Positions 1-40,652 of a DNA stretch of 43,596 nucleotides are shown piece after piece. The DNA is from Candidatus Kaiserbacteria bacterium (lineage in GTDB: Bacteria > Patescibacteriota > Minisyncoccia > Phycocordibacterales > Phycocordibacteraceae), in assembly GCA_026396715.1 (NCBI GenBank), contig JAPLWH010000026.1, positions 1 to 43,596 of the forward strand. Reading direction: 5' to 3'. The translations under genes were made by a program, and so were the position numbers. Within the stretch, counting starts at the first letter, position 1. Every line of letters starts with the position of its first letter. The notes under the pieces were generated by a model. It saw only the letters and a list, made by a program, of their open reading frames with translations, ran no database searches and was not told where the DNA came from.

Positions 1-139
1 ACGCTTCGACTTGAGTACCATCTCTCAGAGACAGCTCGATGGCGTGACGGAACTCATGAACCACACGCCTCGCAAGTCTCTCTCCTGGCGGACGCCCTGC
101 GCGGTATATGGGAAGTGTTGCAATTCAGATTAGAATTCA
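1..139 (+). mobile_element. 3' end of an IS30-family transposase plus right inverted repeat (partial, runs off window)
   Basis: Frame from nt 2 reads RFDLSTISQRQLDGVTELMNHTPRKSLSWRTPCAVY...* (stop 131-133), resembling the IS30 C-terminal 'LNxRPRKxLxxxTP' motif. 115-139 reverse-complements to TGAATTCTAATCTGAATTGCAACAC, matching the IS30-type IR pattern TG...TTGCAACA. Confidence 0.7.
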
Positions 140-161
140 AGGACTATGTTAGAATCAGCAC

Positions 162-1181
162 ATGCGATATCCACGTTCAAAGAAACTCCTATTTGCTAAC
201 AATAAGGGCGGTGTCGGGAAAACAACCCTCGCTTTTAATTGTGCAATGTCGTTTGCAAAAAAAGGATACAAAACAGTACTGATCGATCTTGATCCACAGT
301 GCAATCTCTCTCGACTCGCGCTCGGTGACTTTTTGTACACCGATACGCTATTTTCGCCAACCTACAAAGACATATACGATGTACTGAAGGGCGTCGTAGA
401 AGGTGGATCTGATATTGATATTTCGGTACCCTTTTTGCCGGTCTCGAATAGTGAGGGTAATTTGTTCTTACTCAAAGGCAGCGTGAACCTCTCGCTCTAT
501 GAGAACATTCTTGTAGCTGCGTATGGACAGGCGGCCGCGGGGCAACAACTCGGATATTTTCAGACAAGTGCTATCGATCGTTTTTTGCGCGAGAGAGGAT
601 TACGTGACGAAGTAGATATATTCGTAATTGATACCTCTCCAAGCCTCTCGCTTCTTAATCAGGTTATTTTTCTTGGAGCAGATTATTTTATGGTACCAAT
701 GATGCCTGACGCTTTTAGTGTTCAAGGTATTGAAAACCTTGGTACAGTGTTTGAGAAGTGGAAGCAAAATTGGAAAGTAACCGGTAAGGCTCTTTCTGGA
801 AATACCGAGACAAAATTCGTTCTGGCGGGCGAAGGCTTATTTATTGGATATGTAATAAATGCATACAATGTCTATGGCAAGCAACCTATTAAAGACCATC
901 GCCATTGGATTGAGGAAATTCCTCAGAAAGTGAAAGGTTTCCTTTCTGAAAAACACAGCCGGAATGGTTTGGTTGAGAGAAGTTGGAAAAATCCGCTTGC
1001 AGAAATCCAAGATTATGGAAGAATCCCTGCGAAATGTCAGGAGATTGGAGTTGCAATCTTCGATCTTGATCCGAAGATGATTGATGATATTCACATCGGA
1101 ACAAAAGAAAATATTGAGAAATCCAGAGAAGAATTCGCTCTGCTGGCAGAGAAGATTCTCGAAATACTTCCGAGCTACTAA
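162..1181 (+). CDS. ParA/Soj-family ATPase (orphan, AT-richer than flanks)
   Basis: Deviant Walker A NNKGGVGKTT, LIDLDPQCNLS, and IDTSPSL Walker B region. No parB in the window. Confidence 0.85.
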   Translation: MRYPRSKKLLFANNKGGVGKTTLAFNCAMSFAKKGYKTVLIDLDPQCNLSRLALGDFLYTDTLFSPTYKDIYDVLKGVVEGGSDIDISVPFLPVSNSEGNLFLLKGSVNLSLYENILVAAYGQAAAGQQLGYFQTSAIDRFLRERGLRDEVDIFVIDTSPSLSLLNQVIFLGADYFMVPMMPDAFSVQGIENLGTVFEKWKQNWKVTGKALSGNTETKFVLAGEGLFIGYVINAYNVYGKQPIKDHRHWIEEIPQKVKGFLSEKHSRNGLVERSWKNPLAEIQDYGRIPAKCQEIGVAIFDLDPKMIDDIHIGTKENIEKSREEFALLAEKILEILPSY

Positions 1182-1212
1182 GCATTGTCCCCAAGACTGC
1201 AGAATACAGTAG

Positions 1213-1241
1213 TTGGGCAGGTATCGTAGTCACTGTATAGT
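1213..1241 (+). promoter_or_regulatory. Putative sigma70 promoter of the DGR target gene (leaderless-type)
   Basis: TTGGGC (1213-1218), 17 nt, TATAGT (1236-1241); an ATG lies 6 nt later at 1248. Confidence 0.5.
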
Positions 1242-1258
1242 ATGCGCATGCGTCTCCT

Positions 1259-1267
1259 CCCCCCCCC
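1259..1267 (+). repeat. C9 homopolymer between ATG(1248) and the signal-peptide-encoding frame of the DGR target
   Basis: The ATG 1242/1248 frame stops at TAG 1290-1292. Adding one C (C10) gives MRLLPPPSIFSTIAIVVGFFFFAPLGVQAAYY..., continuous with ORF 1325..4057. Confidence 0.8.
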
Positions 1268-1324
1268 TCAATTTTCTCGACTATCGCGATAGTCGTTGGC
1301 TTTTTTTTCTTCGCGCCGCTCGGG

Positions 1325-4057
1325 GTGCAGGCGGCGTACTATCTCCCCGGCGAAACGCTCAACCCTGCCTGCGCCCCCACGGATTCCGGGTGCGGCATTT
1401 CAAGCATTGTCGCCTCGAGCACTGCCAACAGTATTCCGTACTACGCCGCAAACGGCAGCGTCCTCTCTGCCACCTCGACATTCCAGATACTTTCAAACGG
1501 CACATCCTCGACGACGAATCTCATCGTCGGTAATGCACTCACTATCGGCACGCTCTCGGGTTTTCTGAAAGCAACGGCGGGGGCAGTTGCGACCGCTCTC
1601 GTGAATCTCACTTCAGATGTTACCGGAATTCTTCCAATCATAAACGGCGGCACCGGCCTCTCCGCGCTCTCCGGTAATCAGATTTTGTACACTAATTCCG
1701 CCGGCACCGCTTTCGTGCAAGTCGCCACCTCCTCGCTCTCAATCGGCGGCAACGCCGCCACCGTTACCACCAACGCCAACCTTACTGGCGATGTTACCTC
1801 GACTGGCAACGCCACCGCTATCGGCTCAAACAAAGTGACCATCGGTATGCTCGCCCAAGCGGCCGCCAACACCATCCTCGGAAACTTGACTGGAGCGGTA
1901 GGGAACATTACTGCCTTTGCAACTTCAACCCTCGGTATCGCTCTAGGAGACACTACAGGCACGCTCGCACTCGCTCGAGGCGGTACCGGCGTTATCTCGT
2001 TCACGTCGAATCAAATGCTGTATACGAACGCTGCGGGCGCACTCATCTCCATCGCAACCTCCTCGCTCAACATCGGCGGCACCGCACTTAACATTACTGG
2101 CCTCGCTGCGGTGGCAAACGGCGGCACTGGCTCGACCACGCTCTCGGGCATCTTAAAAGGCAATGGCACCTCGCAAGTCGGCACGCTCGTCGTCGGCACT
2201 GGCCTGATCTATGACGGCACGACGCTTTCCACCAATGGCACAGGCGTTACCTCTCTTGCTGCGCAGTATTCAACTGGACAGACCGGAGGCACCCAAACAT
2301 TTGCAACTTCAACAGCCGACACGAATCTCGGCATGAGTGTCGTTTCAAGCGGCAACATCCACACCTTCACGCCGTACTGGATCGGCACCTTGGCTGACGC
2401 GCGCATAGGAAGCGCGGCAGCGTGGAATGCGAAGCAAGCCGCGCTCTCTTTCATCTATCCGCTCATTAATTCCGCGAATACCATTACTTCCGCCCTCGCC
2501 ACGACCTCGTCCAATACCTGGGGCGGTACCCAAACGTTTACCAACGCTCCCATCCTCGCGGCGCTCTCGGGCATCGTCGGCGTAAATGCCGGCGCGAGCT
2601 ACTCGGTCTCCACGAGCACGCTCAACATCGGCGGCACCGCACTTAACATTACTGGCCTCGCTGCGGTGGCAAACGGCGGCACTGGCGTTGCCGCCATCGC
2701 GCTCGGATTCATTCCATTCGGAAATGGCACGAGTGCGGTCGCGACCTCGTCGAGCTTGTATTGGGACAGCACGAACAGTCGTCTCGGCATCGGAACGACC
2801 TCGCCACTATCGCTGCTCGCGATCGGCGGCGGCGTATCAATCGGCGCGGACTACAACCTCGCGGCACCGACGAACGGTCTCATCGTCGAAGGGAGCGTCG
2901 GTATCGGCACCACGACGCCATGGCGCAATTTCTCCCTCAAGGGCACGGTGTCGTCGCCTCAATTCGCGCTTGCGTACGATGCCACGCGCTACACACAGCT
3001 GCAGACCGACGCGTCGGGCGACCTCTCTATTTTCACTTCCGGCGGCAATACGCGTCTGCCCGACAACAACCTCTTCGTCTGCGCAGGCGGAGCCTGCCCG
3101 ACGCTTTCCATCACCGGCACCGGGAATCTCACGGTCGAGAATAAAATTACCGTCGGTTCGATAGAACAGTTTTGTCCCGCCGGCTACCTCTGGGTGCCAG
3201 GCCTCGCGCAGTACGGCACGCTCCCGGGTTTCTGCACCATGAAATACGAAGCGAAAAACAGCGCCGGCACTGCGGTCTCGGTTCCTGCCGGCGGGCCGTG
3301 GGTTAGCATAGACCAACCCACGGCCCGAGCCGCGTGCGAGGCGCTTGGCACGGGCTATCATCTCATCAATGAGGCGGAATGGATGACCATCGCAACCCAC
3401 ATAGCGACCCTTCCCATCAACGACACTGACACGGATGCCTCTCTGCAGCTTGCTACCGGCCACGGAGACAATGCGCCCGCGAGCGCGCTTGCCGCGGGCA
3501 CGAGCGCGACCGACCCGGTCGTCTCCGGCTGCAATCTTAGCGTTGATATGGAGAATGCCGCAAACGCTTACACGAGCACATGCCAAATCAGAGGCGCGGG
3601 AGCGGGCGGTTCGCTTGATGCCGATAATGGCTATTACGGCACGGGGCAAACGTGGGCAGCCACCGGCTATGTCTCGGGTGCTTCCAATAAGTCGCAGTTG
3701 CGCACCGCCGTCTTGCCGAACGGCACGGTGCTGTGGGATATCGCAGGCAATGTCTGGGAATGGACCGACGCGTATGTGAACGGCACGGCGGAAAAGCCGG
3801 CGGCGGTCACGGACGCTTGGCAGGAATTTAGTGCTATTACCAATTATGCAACTCTTAATTACGCTCGCCCCAAAAATCCTTCATGGACTTCTGCAAACGG
3901 GATTGGTCAATATTATTCCGGTACGGTCGCCGGACAGCGCGCCTTTATCCGCGGCGGGGATTGGGACTACGGTGCGGTTGGCGGCGTATTCACGCTGCAT
4001 CTGTCCGGTGCGCCGTCCAACTCGAGCACGAGCGTCGGGTTCCGCTGTTCCCGGTGA
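1325..4057 (+). CDS. DGR target protein: large Gly/Thr/Ala/Ser-rich surface protein with C-terminal FGE-sulfatase/C-type-lectin-fold domain (true start probably 1248 across the C9 tract)
   Basis: GGTG and GIGTTxP repeats typical of fibre-like surface proteins. The C-terminal domain has CPAGY..FCTMKYEAK, HLINEAEW, DIAGNVWEW, and RGG.W...GFRC at the very end, which is the VR. Confidence 0.9.
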   Translation: MQAAYYLPGETLNPACAPTDSGCGISSIVASSTANSIPYYAANGSVLSATSTFQILSNGTSSTTNLIVGNALTIGTLSGFLKATAGAVATALVNLTSDVTGILPIINGGTGLSALSGNQILYTNSAGTAFVQVATSSLSIGGNAATVTTNANLTGDVTSTGNATAIGSNKVTIGMLAQAAANTILGNLTGAVGNITAFATSTLGIALGDTTGTLALARGGTGVISFTSNQMLYTNAAGALISIATSSLNIGGTALNITGLAAVANGGTGSTTLSGILKGNGTSQVGTLVVGTGLIYDGTTLSTNGTGVTSLAAQYSTGQTGGTQTFATSTADTNLGMSVVSSGNIHTFTPYWIGTLADARIGSAAAWNAKQAALSFIYPLINSANTITSALATTSSNTWGGTQTFTNAPILAALSGIVGVNAGASYSVSTSTLNIGGTALNITGLAAVANGGTGVAAIALGFIPFGNGTSAVATSSSLYWDSTNSRLGIGTTSPLSLLAIGGGVSIGADYNLAAPTNGLIVEGSVGIGTTTPWRNFSLKGTVSSPQFALAYDATRYTQLQTDASGDLSIFTSGGNTRLPDNNLFVCAGGACPTLSITGTGNLTVENKITVGSIEQFCPAGYLWVPGLAQYGTLPGFCTMKYEAKNSAGTAVSVPAGGPWVSIDQPTARAACEALGTGYHLINEAEWMTIATHIATLPINDTDTDASLQLATGHGDNAPASALAAGTSATDPVVSGCNLSVDMENAANAYTSTCQIRGAGAGGSLDADNGYYGTGQTWAATGYVSGASNKSQLRTAVLPNGTVLWDIAGNVWEWTDAYVNGTAEKPAAVTDAWQEFSAITNYATLNYARPKNPSWTSANGIGQYYSGTVAGQRAFIRGGDWDYGAVGGVFTLHLSGAPSNSSTSVGFRCSR
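2064..2131 (+). repeat. Exact 68-bp internal direct repeat, copy 1 (copy 2 at 2619-2686)
   Basis: Identical 68 nt encoding LNIGGTALNITGLAAVANGGTG in both places. Confidence 0.95.
2619..2686 (+). repeat. Exact 68-bp internal direct repeat, copy 2
   Basis: Identical to 2064-2131. Confidence 0.95.
3940..4055 (+). repeat. DGR variable repeat (VR)
   Basis: 116-nt ungapped match to 4605-4720 with 14 mismatches, every one opposite a TR adenine. Encodes the last 38 residues of the target. Confidence 0.97.
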
Positions 4058-4219: not shown

Positions 4220-4594
4220 ATGTTCGAACAACTTCCAATATTCGAGAAGACATACCAGATTATCCGCTGGCTCTATCCGACCATCAACAAGTTCCCGAAG
4301 TCCCAGCGCTTCGTGCTCGGACAGCAGATAGAGAACACAGCTCTTTTGATACTGACGGGCATCATTGCCGCCAACGGCGAGCGGGACAAGGTGCCCGCGC
4401 TCAAGCGCGTGAGCACGCTGCTCGACACACTGCGCATCCTCATCCGGCTTTCCAAAGACCTCGGGTTCATAAGCGTGAAGCAGTATGTGTTCGCCGCCGA
4501 GCGCGTAAACGAGATCGGGAAGATGCTCGGCGGATGGATGAAGCAGTCGGCTTCCTCCGCGCCCACGCCGGTCCGTGGGCAGGGCCGCGTCTAG
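4220..4594 (+). CDS. avd: DGR accessory variability determinant (Avd, four-helix bundle)
   Basis: LPIFEKTY...KFPKSQRFVLGQQIE...LRILIRLSKDLGFI...EIGKMLGGW signature; located between target and TR/RT. Confidence 0.92.
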   Translation: MFEQLPIFEKTYQIIRWLYPTINKFPKSQRFVLGQQIENTALLILTGIIAANGERDKVPALKRVSTLLDTLRILIRLSKDLGFISVKQYVFAAERVNEIGKMLGGWMKQSASSAPTPVRGQGRV

Positions 4595-4604
4595 ACACAG
4601 CTCT

Positions 4605-4720
4605 CGCCTTTATCCGCGGCGGGAATTGGAACAACGGTGCGATTGACGGCGTATTCACGCTGAATCTGAACAATGCGCCGTCCAACACGAACACGAACAT
4701 CGGGTTCCGCTGTTCCCGGT
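4605..4720 (+). ncRNA. DGR template repeat (TR)
   Basis: Non-coding copy of VR between avd and RT. It has 26 adenines, including 9 AAC/AAT codons in the VR frame. Confidence 0.97.
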
Positions 4721-4910
4721 ATTCATCAATGAGCACCACCGGTGCTCGCGGCCAGAACAGGACGTTTACGGACATCCCGTCCGCGCCAAGGAAGAATACT
4801 GACGCGACCCTTCTCGCGCGAAAGCGCGGGAGCATATCGGGCCCGTACCTCCGTTCGGCATGCGTCCGCGCATCCCGAGCGGAGCCAATGGGCCCCCGAA
4901 CGCACATACT

Positions 4911-5945
4911 ATGAATCCAACTTTCAATTCAGTGTGTTCATTCGAGAGCCTGTTGCGTGCGTACCGGCGAGCGCGCCGCGCAAGCCCTAAGAGCCACGAC
5001 ACGCTTGCTTTCGGCTGGCATCTTGAAAAAAATCTGCTACAACTTCGCGATGAGCTTATGAATGGCCAGTATCGGCACGGCGCATATCGCGAATTCGTCG
5101 TTGAGGATGCGAAGAAACGGCACATCAAGGCCGCCTCTTTCCGCGATCGCGTGGTGCACCACGCGATATGTAGCGCGCTCGAGCCAATTTTCGAGCGTCG
5201 GTTCATCGGTGACAGCTATGCCTGCCGCGCGGGCAAGGGAACACACGCGGCGCTCCGCCGGCTTGAAGTATGGCTGCGCCGCGGGGACGACCCATATGTG
5301 CTGTCGTGCGATATATCGAAGTATTTCGCCAGCATCAATCATGAGAACCTCATGATGCTCATCGCTTCACGGGTAAGCGATTCACAGCTCGTCAGTCTTT
5401 GCCGGAGCGTGGTGGAGAGCACCGAAGACGCTCCCGGCCGCGGTATCCCGATAGGGAACCTCACGAGTCAGCTCTTCGCGAATGTGTATCTCGACGCGCT
5501 TGACCATCACGCGAAGCGCGTCCTCGGTATCCGACGCTATATCCGTTATATGGACGATTTCCTCATCTTCGGCAAGGACACCGCGTCGCTTCACGAGACG
5601 AAGGCGCGGATTGTGGCGTTTCTCGGGAGTCGGCTCGGTCTCGTGCTCCATCCCAAAAAGGCGAATGTATTTCCGGTGGTCGTTGGCGTGCCGTTTCTCG
5701 GCTACCGTGTGTTCCGCTCTCATCGGCTGCTGCGCAAAAGCACCGTGATGCGGTTCGCCCGAAGGGTTCGGCAGTACAAACTCCTGCTCGCTTCGGGCGA
5801 TATGGAACCCGAAGCGTTTTTCGCAGGAATGCGGTCGTGGTCCGCCTATGCGGACGACGCGGCTTCAAGCGGCCTCAAGCGCTCGCTCGCGGGGCGCCTC
5901 GGCATCTCGTTTGCGCCCTTTATCAGCTTTCAAACAGCACTATGA
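4911..5945 (+). CDS. DGR reverse transcriptase (344 aa)
   Basis: KKRHIKAASFRDRVVHHA, CDISKYF, GIPIGNLTSQLFANVYL (DGR-type SQ motif), and YIRYMDDF catalytic motif. No obvious intron maturase or endonuclease extension. Confidence 0.95.
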   Translation: MNPTFNSVCSFESLLRAYRRARRASPKSHDTLAFGWHLEKNLLQLRDELMNGQYRHGAYREFVVEDAKKRHIKAASFRDRVVHHAICSALEPIFERRFIGDSYACRAGKGTHAALRRLEVWLRRGDDPYVLSCDISKYFASINHENLMMLIASRVSDSQLVSLCRSVVESTEDAPGRGIPIGNLTSQLFANVYLDALDHHAKRVLGIRRYIRYMDDFLIFGKDTASLHETKARIVAFLGSRLGLVLHPKKANVFPVVVGVPFLGYRVFRSHRLLRKSTVMRFARRVRQYKLLLASGDMEPEAFFAGMRSWSAYADDAASSGLKRSLAGRLGISFAPFISFQTAL

Positions 5946-39174: not shown

Positions 39175-40539
39175 TCATTTCGAAAAATCCGCGTATGCCA
39201 TCTCGCGCTTGCCCTCGGGGATGACGCGCTCGATGGTGAATTGACCGTTTGCGAGTGACGCTTTGACTATCTTCATGCGTTTTCCTCCGCCAGCTGGCGG
39301 ATCGAAAAAATACGTACCGATGGTGTCGGCGTACGCGCGATACTTGTACCAATTCTCTTCGGCAGGCGCATCGAGCGAGAGCAGGCCGTCTTCTTTTTTG
39401 AGTTTCCCAGCGCGTGTTGCGTGCGCGTGTTCTTGTGGGACGGGAATGATGTCGCCCGAGAGGTAGGCAGGAAGTGTTTCGACAAGCAGTGCTGCGCCGA
39501 TCTCTATGAGTCGCGGGCGCAGTTCGCGCGCAGTTTCGCCGGGTGCGATCTCTGTTGCTTCTTGTGCGAGGACGTCGCCCGCATCAAGCTCTTTGACCAT
39601 TTTCTGCAGGCTCACGCCGGTCATCGTGTCGCCTGAAAGCAGTGCCGTCTCAAGTGGTGTCGCGCCGCGGTATTTTGGCAGCAGGGAATAATGCACGTTG
39701 ATGACGCCTTTCGGAAAGGCGCGTATTAGTGTTTCGGGAAATATTTTTCCATACGCGACGACGACTGCGTATTCGCATTCGTAGGCGGTGATCGCCTCGA
39801 TTGCCGCCGCATCGAGTTTTTCGGGAGTCATGACTGGAATGTCATGCGCAAGTGCGAGCGCTTTCGTCTCAGAAGGCGTGAGTACGAGGCCGCGACCCCG
39901 CGGCGCGTCGGGAGACGTCACGACAACAGCGGGCACGAAGCCGCTCTCTATGAGTGCGGCAAGCGTTTCGCTTGCGACGCCCGGCGTACCGAAATACGCG
40001 AAGCGATGCTCTGACCGGTGGGAGACGCGCGTGAGGTGCTCGGCATGATCGATGAAGAGAATGCCGTTCAAGTGATCCATCTCATGTTCGAATATCTGCG
40101 CCATGAGGCCGCCGGCACCGCGCTCAAAGGGCGTGCCGGTAACGTGTCGTGCTTTGATCGTGACGCGCTCGTGACGGCTCGTCGTGCCGTAGATGCCGCG
40201 CACCGAGAGGCAGCCCTCGTCCACGAATGCGCGCTTGCGGGAAGTTTTCAGGATTTCGGGATTGAGGTAGACATCGACTTCCGGCGGAGGCGGCGGAGGA
40301 AGTGTCTCGCCCGCTACTTTTCTCTGAAGGGGGAGTGTGCGGTCCTTCCGTACGATGAAGATGCGATAGGACATGCCAATTTGCGGCGCAGCGAGCGCGA
40401 CGCCTTCGGGCTGCTCTTCAAGCGCTTCGGACATGTCTTTGATGATCTGCGCGAGCTTGGGCGTGTCGAAAAGCCCGTCGGGTACGGGCTGAGCGATTTC
40501 GCGCAGTACTGGCGCGCCGTCTTGCACGATCTCTTTCAT
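39175..40539 (-). CDS. def-fmt: Peptide deformylase / methionyl-tRNA formyltransferase fusion (454 aa)
   Basis: N-half has GVALAAPQIG, EGCLSV and HEMDHLNG (PDF). C-half has FGTP, VVTSPDAPRGRG and NVHYSLLPKYRGATP (Fmt). No stop between the halves. Confidence 0.92.
   Translation of the reverse strand: MKEIVQDGAPVLREIAQPVPDGLFDTPKLAQIIKDMSEALEEQPEGVALAAPQIGMSYRIFIVRKDRTLPLQRKVAGETLPPPPPPEVDVYLNPEILKTSRKRAFVDEGCLSVRGIYGTTSRHERVTIKARHVTGTPFERGAGGLMAQIFEHEMDHLNGILFIDHAEHLTRVSHRSEHRFAYFGTPGVASETLAALIESGFVPAVVVTSPDAPRGRGLVLTPSETKALALAHDIPVMTPEKLDAAAIEAITAYECEYAVVVAYGKIFPETLIRAFPKGVINVHYSLLPKYRGATPLETALLSGDTMTGVSLQKMVKELDAGDVLAQEATEIAPGETARELRPRLIEIGAALLVETLPAYLSGDIIPVPQEHAHATRAGKLKKEDGLLSLDAPAEENWYKYRAYADTIGTYFFDPPAGGGKRMKIVKASLANGQFTIERVIPEGKREMAYADFSK
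39286..39301. repeat. 16-bp perfect palindrome inside the fmt domain
   Basis: TCCGCCAGCTGGCGGA, encoding D-PPAGG-G. Confidence 0.65.
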
Positions 40540-40652
40540 CCCGTTAGAAATAGGACGCGGACGCGCAGGCAAAGCCGCCGCCGAACCCTATTTGATTAGA
40601 GTTGATAATTGAACCCGTCTCTCGGTTGAGGCGTCCGCGATTTCTAACGGGA
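40539..40652. mobile_element. MITE-like element copy 1 (114 bp) at the def-fmt start codon
   Basis: 13-bp perfect TIRs TCCCGTTAGAAAT/ATTTCTAACGGGA, inner 9-bp IR, and TTCA direct repeats at 40535-40538 and 40653-40656. Confidence 0.75.

Follow-up and report, generated by a model that had tools for sequence, protein, structure and literature searches.

Repeat-tract phase variation counts as a hallmark of host-adapted pathogens; the other main route by which bacteria hypermutate chosen sequences is the diversity-generating retroelement (DGR). In the Opa adhesins of Neisseria, a (CTCTT)n repeat lies inside the signal-peptide coding region, and the number of repeats sets the reading frame and hence the ON or OFF state. 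Neisseria PilC carries a poly-G tract in its signal-peptide codons, and the Bordetella fim genes carry C-tracts in the promoter spacer. Known DGR targets include Mtd of a Bordetella phage, TvpA of Treponema and the abundant targets of the candidate phyla radiation (CPR) and DPANN, for which, to our knowledge and as far as we could find, no repeat-based frameshift switch in their own signal peptide has been reported. We describe here a DGR target gene on contig JAPLWH010000026.1 of a Candidatus Kaiserbacteria bacterium, 43.6 kb that were analysed as a whole (hereafter the window; coordinates are window positions on the (+) strand unless another locus or strand is named). Judging from the sequence, a run of nine cytosines (C9) in its first codons is probably a slipped-strand ON/OFF switch, and the gene is assembled in the OFF state.

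For meningococcal NalP and MspA, PMC3723659 describes homopolymeric tracts within the coding sequence, and PMC4965091 gives 29 poly-G/C contingency loci for Campylobacter jejuni NCTC11168, with tracts of at least 7 as a working threshold. As in PilC and NalP/MspA, the proposed frameshift switch lies close to the 5' end of a gene for a secreted protein and consists of a G/C homopolymer some 9 nt long; the window gene differs from these by its phylum and by the coupling to a DGR. Tract type and length range are also those of C. jejuni, and in both cases consensus genomes mix ON and OFF states. Unlike C. jejuni, where many loci per genome act mostly on surface glycan modification, the 43.6 kb studied here contain one G/C tract, and this tract lies on a proteinaceous DGR target. 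The C9 run is the only run of at least 7 C or G in the window, where further long mono- or dinucleotide repeats are lacking.

The arrangement of frames at the 5' end of the gene (Table 1) had been outlined in an initial annotation, whose coordinates for the TATAGT box 6 nt before ATG 1248, for the stop codon of that frame and for the C9 and T8 runs all hold. The C9 run starts 11 nt after ATG 1248, and the codons that follow this ATG (CGT CTC CTC CCC CCC CCT CAA ...) run through the tract until TAG 1290. The target frame is -1 relative to ATG 1242 and ATG 1248. It is open from 1241 and, as the same annotation had noted, has no upstream ATG: its earliest canonical start is GTG 1325, which gives an open reading frame (ORF) of 910 amino acids (1325-4057). 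With one extra C (C10), the ATG reads M(RM)RLLPPPSIFSTIAIVVGFFFFAPLGVQAAYY... joined to the 910-aa ORF, i.e. MRMRLLPPPSIFSTIAIVVGFFFFAPLGVQAAYYLPGE..., which amounts to an intact 938-aa preprotein. The C10 part of the proposed frame junction was thus confirmed, while the C7 product differs from the one announced in having two prolines (MRLLPPS) and not PPP. The T8 run was considered as a compensating second switch and rejected, as it sits 3' of TAG 1290 and does not rescue the OFF frame.

The start codon was examined in the context of the other genes of the window. A TAnnnT box 5-9 nt 5' of the start codon was found in 9 of 30 window genes, against a background of 4.1%, and Shine-Dalgarno sites in 2 of the 30; about one third of the genes thus carry such a box and few a Shine-Dalgarno site, which suggests that leaderless mRNAs are widespread. 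The 6-nt spacing between TATAGT and ATG 1248 is the same as that of the neighbouring ParA-like gene (TAGAAT, 6). ATG 1242 is an alternative start in the frame of ATG 1248 and lies right against the -10 box; neither ATG 1242 nor GTG 1325 has a TAnnnT box at leaderless spacing; GTG 1325 also lacks a Shine-Dalgarno site. Because of this genome-typical -10 spacing and the scarcity of Shine-Dalgarno sites, the target mRNA would be leaderless and begin at AUG 1248.

The N-terminus restored by C10 has the layout of a Sec signal peptide, as judged by inspection: MRLLPPP / SIFSTIAIVVGFFFFAPLG / VQA↓A (the arrow marks cleavage), with a charged start, a hydrophobic core and small residues at -3 and -1. 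Following the AXA rule, a signal-peptidase I site is predicted at VQA↓AYY, after 1333. The signal or transmembrane segment that had been noticed in the target frame has homologous counterparts in the three closest orthologues, P0002 (84% identity), P0003 and P0004, whose signal peptides end ..PLAAQA↓ALYLPGETL; the window equivalent, ..APLGVQA↓AYYLPGETL, lies in the target frame and extends upstream of GTG 1325. Moreover, the C10 N-terminus MRMRLLPPPSIFSTIA aligns without a gap to MPIRSPSPPRFLSTIA of the orthologue at locus L002 (P0002). Since the signal peptide is kept in the orthologues, the segment 1268-1333 is coding and GTG 1325, the V of ..GVQA, is internal to the signal peptide, so that a product begun there would have no export signal. 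A downstream start, at GTG 1325 or at an in-frame codon of a non-canonical kind (e.g. ATT 1271), with the upstream ATG being irrelevant, has in its favour that the mechanical ORF call takes GTG 1325 as the start. We regard the chance of this as close to negligible: the GTG product would lack the conserved signal peptide, the codon has neither initiation signal named above, a start at ATT 1271 would give a signal peptide without a charged start, and the orthologues all start 5' of the repeat. Translation from GTG 1325 with normal export, named in the initial annotation as an outcome that would speak against a switch, is therefore contradicted by the location of this codon inside the conserved signal peptide.

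To compare the site between genes, loci were retrieved via the conserved mature N-terminal module and not via the repeat; ON and OFF designate the frame state as assembled. In the closest clade, each of the six distinct genes has a perfect simple-sequence repeat at the same position; its motif varies (C, CT or AG), and it ends 59-79 nt 5' of the first mature codon. Three are ON: L002, a syntenic locus (ParA-target-Avd) with an in-frame C5-T-C9, and L003 with (CT)10 and L004 with (AG)12, likewise in frame. L002 is an orthologue of the kind that the initial annotation had proposed to look for, with a C9 in frame at the same place. Besides the window gene, L006 is OFF, with (CT)13, a target frame without a start and ATGs in both other frames, as is L007 (= L008), where (CT)9 leaves the homologous ATG (MRNHVINSLSLS..) out of frame by one unit. 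The same (CT)9 OFF allele was found in L022, which comes from a different groundwater sample from L008. Two non-DGR paralogues were picked after repeat-like N-termini had been seen: L023, with (TC)7, is ON, and L024, with ATG-CTA-C10 out of frame, has the layout of the window gene and is OFF. Because the repeat is also present on these two paralogues, it belongs to the N-terminal export module and not to the DGR. The ON and OFF alleles of the orthologues, together with the G9/G10 pair described below, support the repeat switch that had been inferred from one locus.

The likeness to Opa is close in several respects, since a pyrimidine-rich coding repeat lies in the leader peptide of a surface adhesin, the number of units sets the frame, and the repeat encodes hydrophobic or Ser/Leu residues (SLSLSL here) that a signal peptide tolerates. 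Unlike the Opa pentamer, the repeats found here are mono- or dinucleotides that differ among orthologues; the host is an uncultured, groundwater-type environmental CPR bacterium and not a mucosal pathogen, the gene is in addition a DGR target, and its switching is a prediction from the sequence. At three loci (L003 6001-6040, L006 2894-2947 and L023 98-138), ATGs are present in two frames upstream of the (CT)n repeat, so that two thirds of the repeat phases, against the usual one third, would yield a signal peptide, whose N-terminal start would differ from phase to phase. Recoding of TGA (code 25), which might rescue the 'ATG TGA' frame in L007, was considered and rejected, as the target and all orthologues end ..FRCSR at TGA.

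Two pairs of loci were compared in detail. The L022 and L008 proteins differ at 16 positions, all within the last ~95 residues, which would fit diversification of the DGR variable repeat (VR). As these loci come from different samples, have different VRs and share (CT)9, the OFF allele is independent of the assembler. Among more distant relatives, L013 and L014 share 99.7% identity across 6183 nt, and their sole indel is G9 versus G10 in a poly-G run (L013 2890-2898, L014 2889-2898) that lies between a -35-like TTGCTA and a -10-like TACAAT, giving a spacer of 16 or 17 nt. The run is a candidate promoter-spacer phase-variation tract, placed between its two boxes like the fim tracts mentioned above and like the poly-G promoter-spacer tract of meningococcal porA described in PMC3639595; it is a feature of these relatives and not of the window gene. 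In the 159 kb of fetched DNA, runs of at least 9 identical bases or at least 6 dinucleotide units were confined to these 5' ends, with the exception of two in L017. The latter, (CT)7 at 1120-1133 and (AG)10 at 2043-2062 on the (-) strand, occupy the initial codons of two further predicted genes (MTPLPHFVSLSLF.. and MMAIRERERERRNIDPALFKVLLAAII..), and repeats in N-terminal codons may thus be a wider habit in these genomes.

With a single base at stake, and homopolymers being classic sites of indel errors, we asked whether the assembled C9 is genuine. If the real sequence were C10, the gene would be ON and the frameshift a homopolymer miscall. The gap-free alignment of the C10 N-terminus to L002 would agree with this, and the 5' region has no exact copy in the JGI metagenomes for comparison (an exact-flank DNA pattern with a variable gap had no match in the JGI metagenome contigs). 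However, an independent assembly, Logan contig L001, corresponds to window positions 113-1267 and ends exactly on the ninth C, without C10 read-through. Apart from C9, the contig has 52 homopolymers of at least 6, most of them within intact long ORFs, and none splits an ORF, which argues that it is not generally error-prone at such runs. The OFF orthologues lie at dinucleotide repeats in several independent assemblies, where errors of this kind are unusual. A miscall is for these reasons unlikely, without being negligible, and even if it were one, the tract would stay a candidate switch. The break of L001 on the last shared k-mer before a T-or-C base has the shape expected of a mixture of C9 and C10, since a uniform C9 or a uniform C10 should have been read through; it is only suggestive. 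When the first 206 residues were used as a query, just short and more distant proteins were recovered, without near-identical fragments from the Logan samples or a contig starting at the C tract. We infer that C9 is the real majority allele.

The other end of L001 falls on the edge of an IS30-like transposase fragment. Window positions 1-112 hold the 3' end of a transposase ORF (..MNHTPRKSLSWRTPCAVYG), which we take from its motif to be of the IS30 type; the window contig begins inside it and L001 right after it, and assemblies probably break there because the element is repeated. An internal 100-nt repeat of the target also breaks the Logan assembly (L025 starts at 2657), and a 37.9-kb Logan contig from this population has its only break at this repeat.

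Several observations weigh against a switch or limit its scope. A bare C9 is expected 0.15 times per window by chance and occurred at least once in 13 of 100 dinucleotide shuffles; its significance comes from its position and its recurrence in orthologues and not from the run itself. In the unbiased set, which leaves out L023 and L024 because they were selected after repeat-like N-termini had been noticed, a long repeat is present at this site in 7 of 18 distinct loci. The OFF call of L024 depends on the choice of start, as an alternative in-frame ATG lies far upstream. In at least two samples the consensus is the (CT)9 OFF allele, so that at this locus, at least, flipping is not fast enough to make all samples look mixed. 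The break of L001 could also result from stutter in PCR or sequencing or from a local gap in coverage. Finally, leaky expression from C9 through transcriptional or ribosomal slippage is possible.

Such slippage could also be the normal mode of expression. In this case C9 would be fixed, and a -1 ribosomal frameshift on C CCC CCC, or stutter of RNA polymerase, would set the ratio of the 14-aa peptide to the full-length protein. The step from frame 0 to the target frame is indeed exactly -1, Pro-tRNAs can re-pair perfectly anywhere in C9, a slippery heptamer is present in the zero frame within 1259-1265 (a formal match only), and a perfect 18-nt palindrome past the tract gives the appearance of a slippery site, spacer and hairpin. 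Depending on the heptamer, however, the palindrome lies 9-12 nt downstream, where 5-9 nt is the norm for a stimulator, its 7-bp stem is weak (~-7 kcal/mol) and the region folds no better than shuffled sequences (z-score -0.5). L002, L024 and the other orthologues lack the palindrome, a search of Rfam over 1100-1450 gave no match, the C9 of L002 is already in frame, so that the need for a frameshift is not conserved, and no slippery heptamer occurs in the (CT)n and (AG)n orthologues. Recoding is thus quite improbable. The palindrome followed by T8 was also considered as an intrinsic terminator or attenuator and rejected, the stem being weak, the T run being set off by TTGGC and the arrangement not being conserved. 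Perfect 18-nt palindromes occur only twice in the window, the other one (CGCGTGGTGCACCACGCG, 5148-5165) being inside the reverse transcriptase gene.

The state of the DGR bears on whether the gene is simply decaying. All 14 mismatches between the VR and the template repeat (TR) fall at TR adenines (14/14) and, with an Avd protein and an RVT_1 reverse transcriptase adjacent, this bears out the earlier assignment of the gene as a DGR target: comparison of the sequences verified that it belongs to a genuine, intact DGR comprising VR/TR, Avd and reverse transcriptase. As in Mtd, TvpA and the CPR/DPANN targets, the C-terminal VR appears to be rewritten from the TR in an adenine-specific manner, with an Avd-TR-reverse transcriptase cassette and a VR domain that may resemble C-type lectins and FGE. 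The PF03781 match of target residues 791-908 (E = 6e-4, 19.9 bits) is below the 23.3-bit cut-off, and several homologues carry PF03781. From this context the target may be ligand-binding. An ordinary loss-of-function frameshift, with the target becoming a pseudogene, would account for a start codon that is out of frame with no canonical in-frame start 5' of GTG 1325, and for the persistence of (CT)9 OFF alleles across samples in a relative. Yet the 939-codon frame is otherwise intact, as are VR, TR, Avd and reverse transcriptase, the VR departs from the TR at adenines only, the VRs keep differing between OFF populations, and the same type of lesion, at a perfect repeat, affects four separate orthologous loci in which no other lesions were seen. 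We therefore hold inactivation to be very improbable.

Taken together, these data favour the repeat switch, which would operate as follows. Transcription would begin about 6 nt past TATAGT, giving a leaderless mRNA from AUG 1248 whose first codons (MRLLPPP..) cross the C tract within the region coding for the start of the Sec signal peptide. Slipped-strand mispairing at replication would add or remove Cs. With C10 (or C7, C13), the ATG would share its frame with the hydrophobic core, the VQA↓A site and the mature protein of 900 aa, which would be made and exported (ON); with C9, ribosomes would halt at TAG 1290 after 14 codons and no target would be exported (OFF). Independently of the switch, the DGR (Avd, TR and reverse transcriptase) would rewrite the C-terminal VR, so that a population may vary both the display of the protein and its binding surface. 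The locus has the sequence features of contingency loci, namely a tract at the 5' end, a change of frame by one unit and orthologous ON and OFF alleles at the same site, and we infer that the C tract slips at high frequency in this organism.

The DGR target locus is chromosomal and Paceibacteria-like (CPR/Patescibacteria): the rest of the window is housekeeping (pyruvate kinase, a def-fmt fusion, a MurA-type enzyme and P-type ATPases), and the named homologues belong to Patescibacteria/Paceibacterota. No identical protein was on record in an exact-product look-up of the 910-aa ORF, and a scan of viral contigs with the N-terminal module found no relatives. With moderate confidence, we propose that a family of secreted, tail-fibre-like surface proteins of Paceibacteria-type CPR, including DGR targets, may be under the control of contingency repeats at one fixed spot of the signal peptide. 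The turnover of the motif (C, CT, AG, promoter G) would imply selection for mutability, and with the DGR this would amount to a two-layer bet-hedging in which diversification of the VR could proceed silently in the OFF state. It would be the first classical phase variation in CPR and on a DGR target. A literature search, in which not all journals were covered, recovered incidental co-mentions alone and no account of phase variation by repeats in either Patescibacteria/CPR or DGR targets, and the combination of a repeat switch and a DGR on one gene appears new and biologically suggestive. Its presence in an ultra-small, probably episymbiotic environmental bacterium suggests that CPR manage host attachment or phage exposure as Neisseria and Campylobacter manage immune pressure. 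Ratios of tract lengths in metagenomic reads would allow the ON/OFF dynamics of CPR populations to be followed without cultivation.

Public gene calls in the family were found to be systematically mis-started: P0001 (window) begins at GTG 1325, P0033 and P0034 (L022 and L008) at an internal Met, and P0013 (L024) at a spurious far-upstream ATG. These mis-starts are due to the repeats, and signal peptides are consequently missing from the database entries. As gene callers truncate or mis-start these genes, catalogues of DGR targets will miss signal peptides and mis-assign localisation.

Table 1. Features of the DGR target locus (window positions).
Feature	Position	Strand	Remarks
Promoter-like site TGGGCA, 16-nt spacer, TATAGT	1214..1241	+	1 site found vs 0.2 expected; -10 box 1236-1241
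Probable true start ATG, putative leaderless mRNA	1248..1250	+	-10 box spacing; C10 N-terminus aligned to L002
C9 homopolymer	1259..1267	+	proposed slipped-strand switch; C9 = OFF, C10/C7/C13 would be ON
Signal-peptide remainder SIFSTIAIVVGFFFFAPLGVQA, target frame	1268..1333	+	homologous to P0002 ..FLSTIALTVSLFLLTPLAAQA↓ALY and other orthologues
Perfect 18-nt palindrome CGACTATCGCGATAGTCG	1278..1295	+	10 nt 3' of C tract, before T8; terminator- or frameshift-stimulator-like, probably incidental
TAG stop of OFF-frame peptide	1290..1292	+	14 codons from ATG 1248, 16 from ATG 1242
T8 run	1301..1308	+	codes FFF(F) in signal-peptide hydrophobic core; not kept in L002
Mature DGR target	1334..4057	+	conserved N-terminal module (YLPGETLNPACAPTD..), repeat-rich middle, putative C-terminal FGE-sulfatase/C-type-lectin-like domain
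Variable repeat VR	3940..4055	+	3' end of target; 88% identical to TR
Avd accessory protein	4220..4594	+	NF033474, E = 6e-34, 116 bits vs cut-off 80
Template repeat TR	4605..4720	+	VR/TR comparison
DGR reverse transcriptase	4860..5945	+	RVT_1, E = 1.7e-19

Two further observations were made in the window. The internal direct repeat of the target extends over 100 nt (2032-2131 and 2587-2686), with 86% identity and a 66-nt exact core, and reflects a duplicated protein module. On the (-) strand, 39175-40572 is a single ORF of 465 aa with peptide deformylase and methionyl-tRNA formyltransferase domains, which is the apparent def-fmt fusion.

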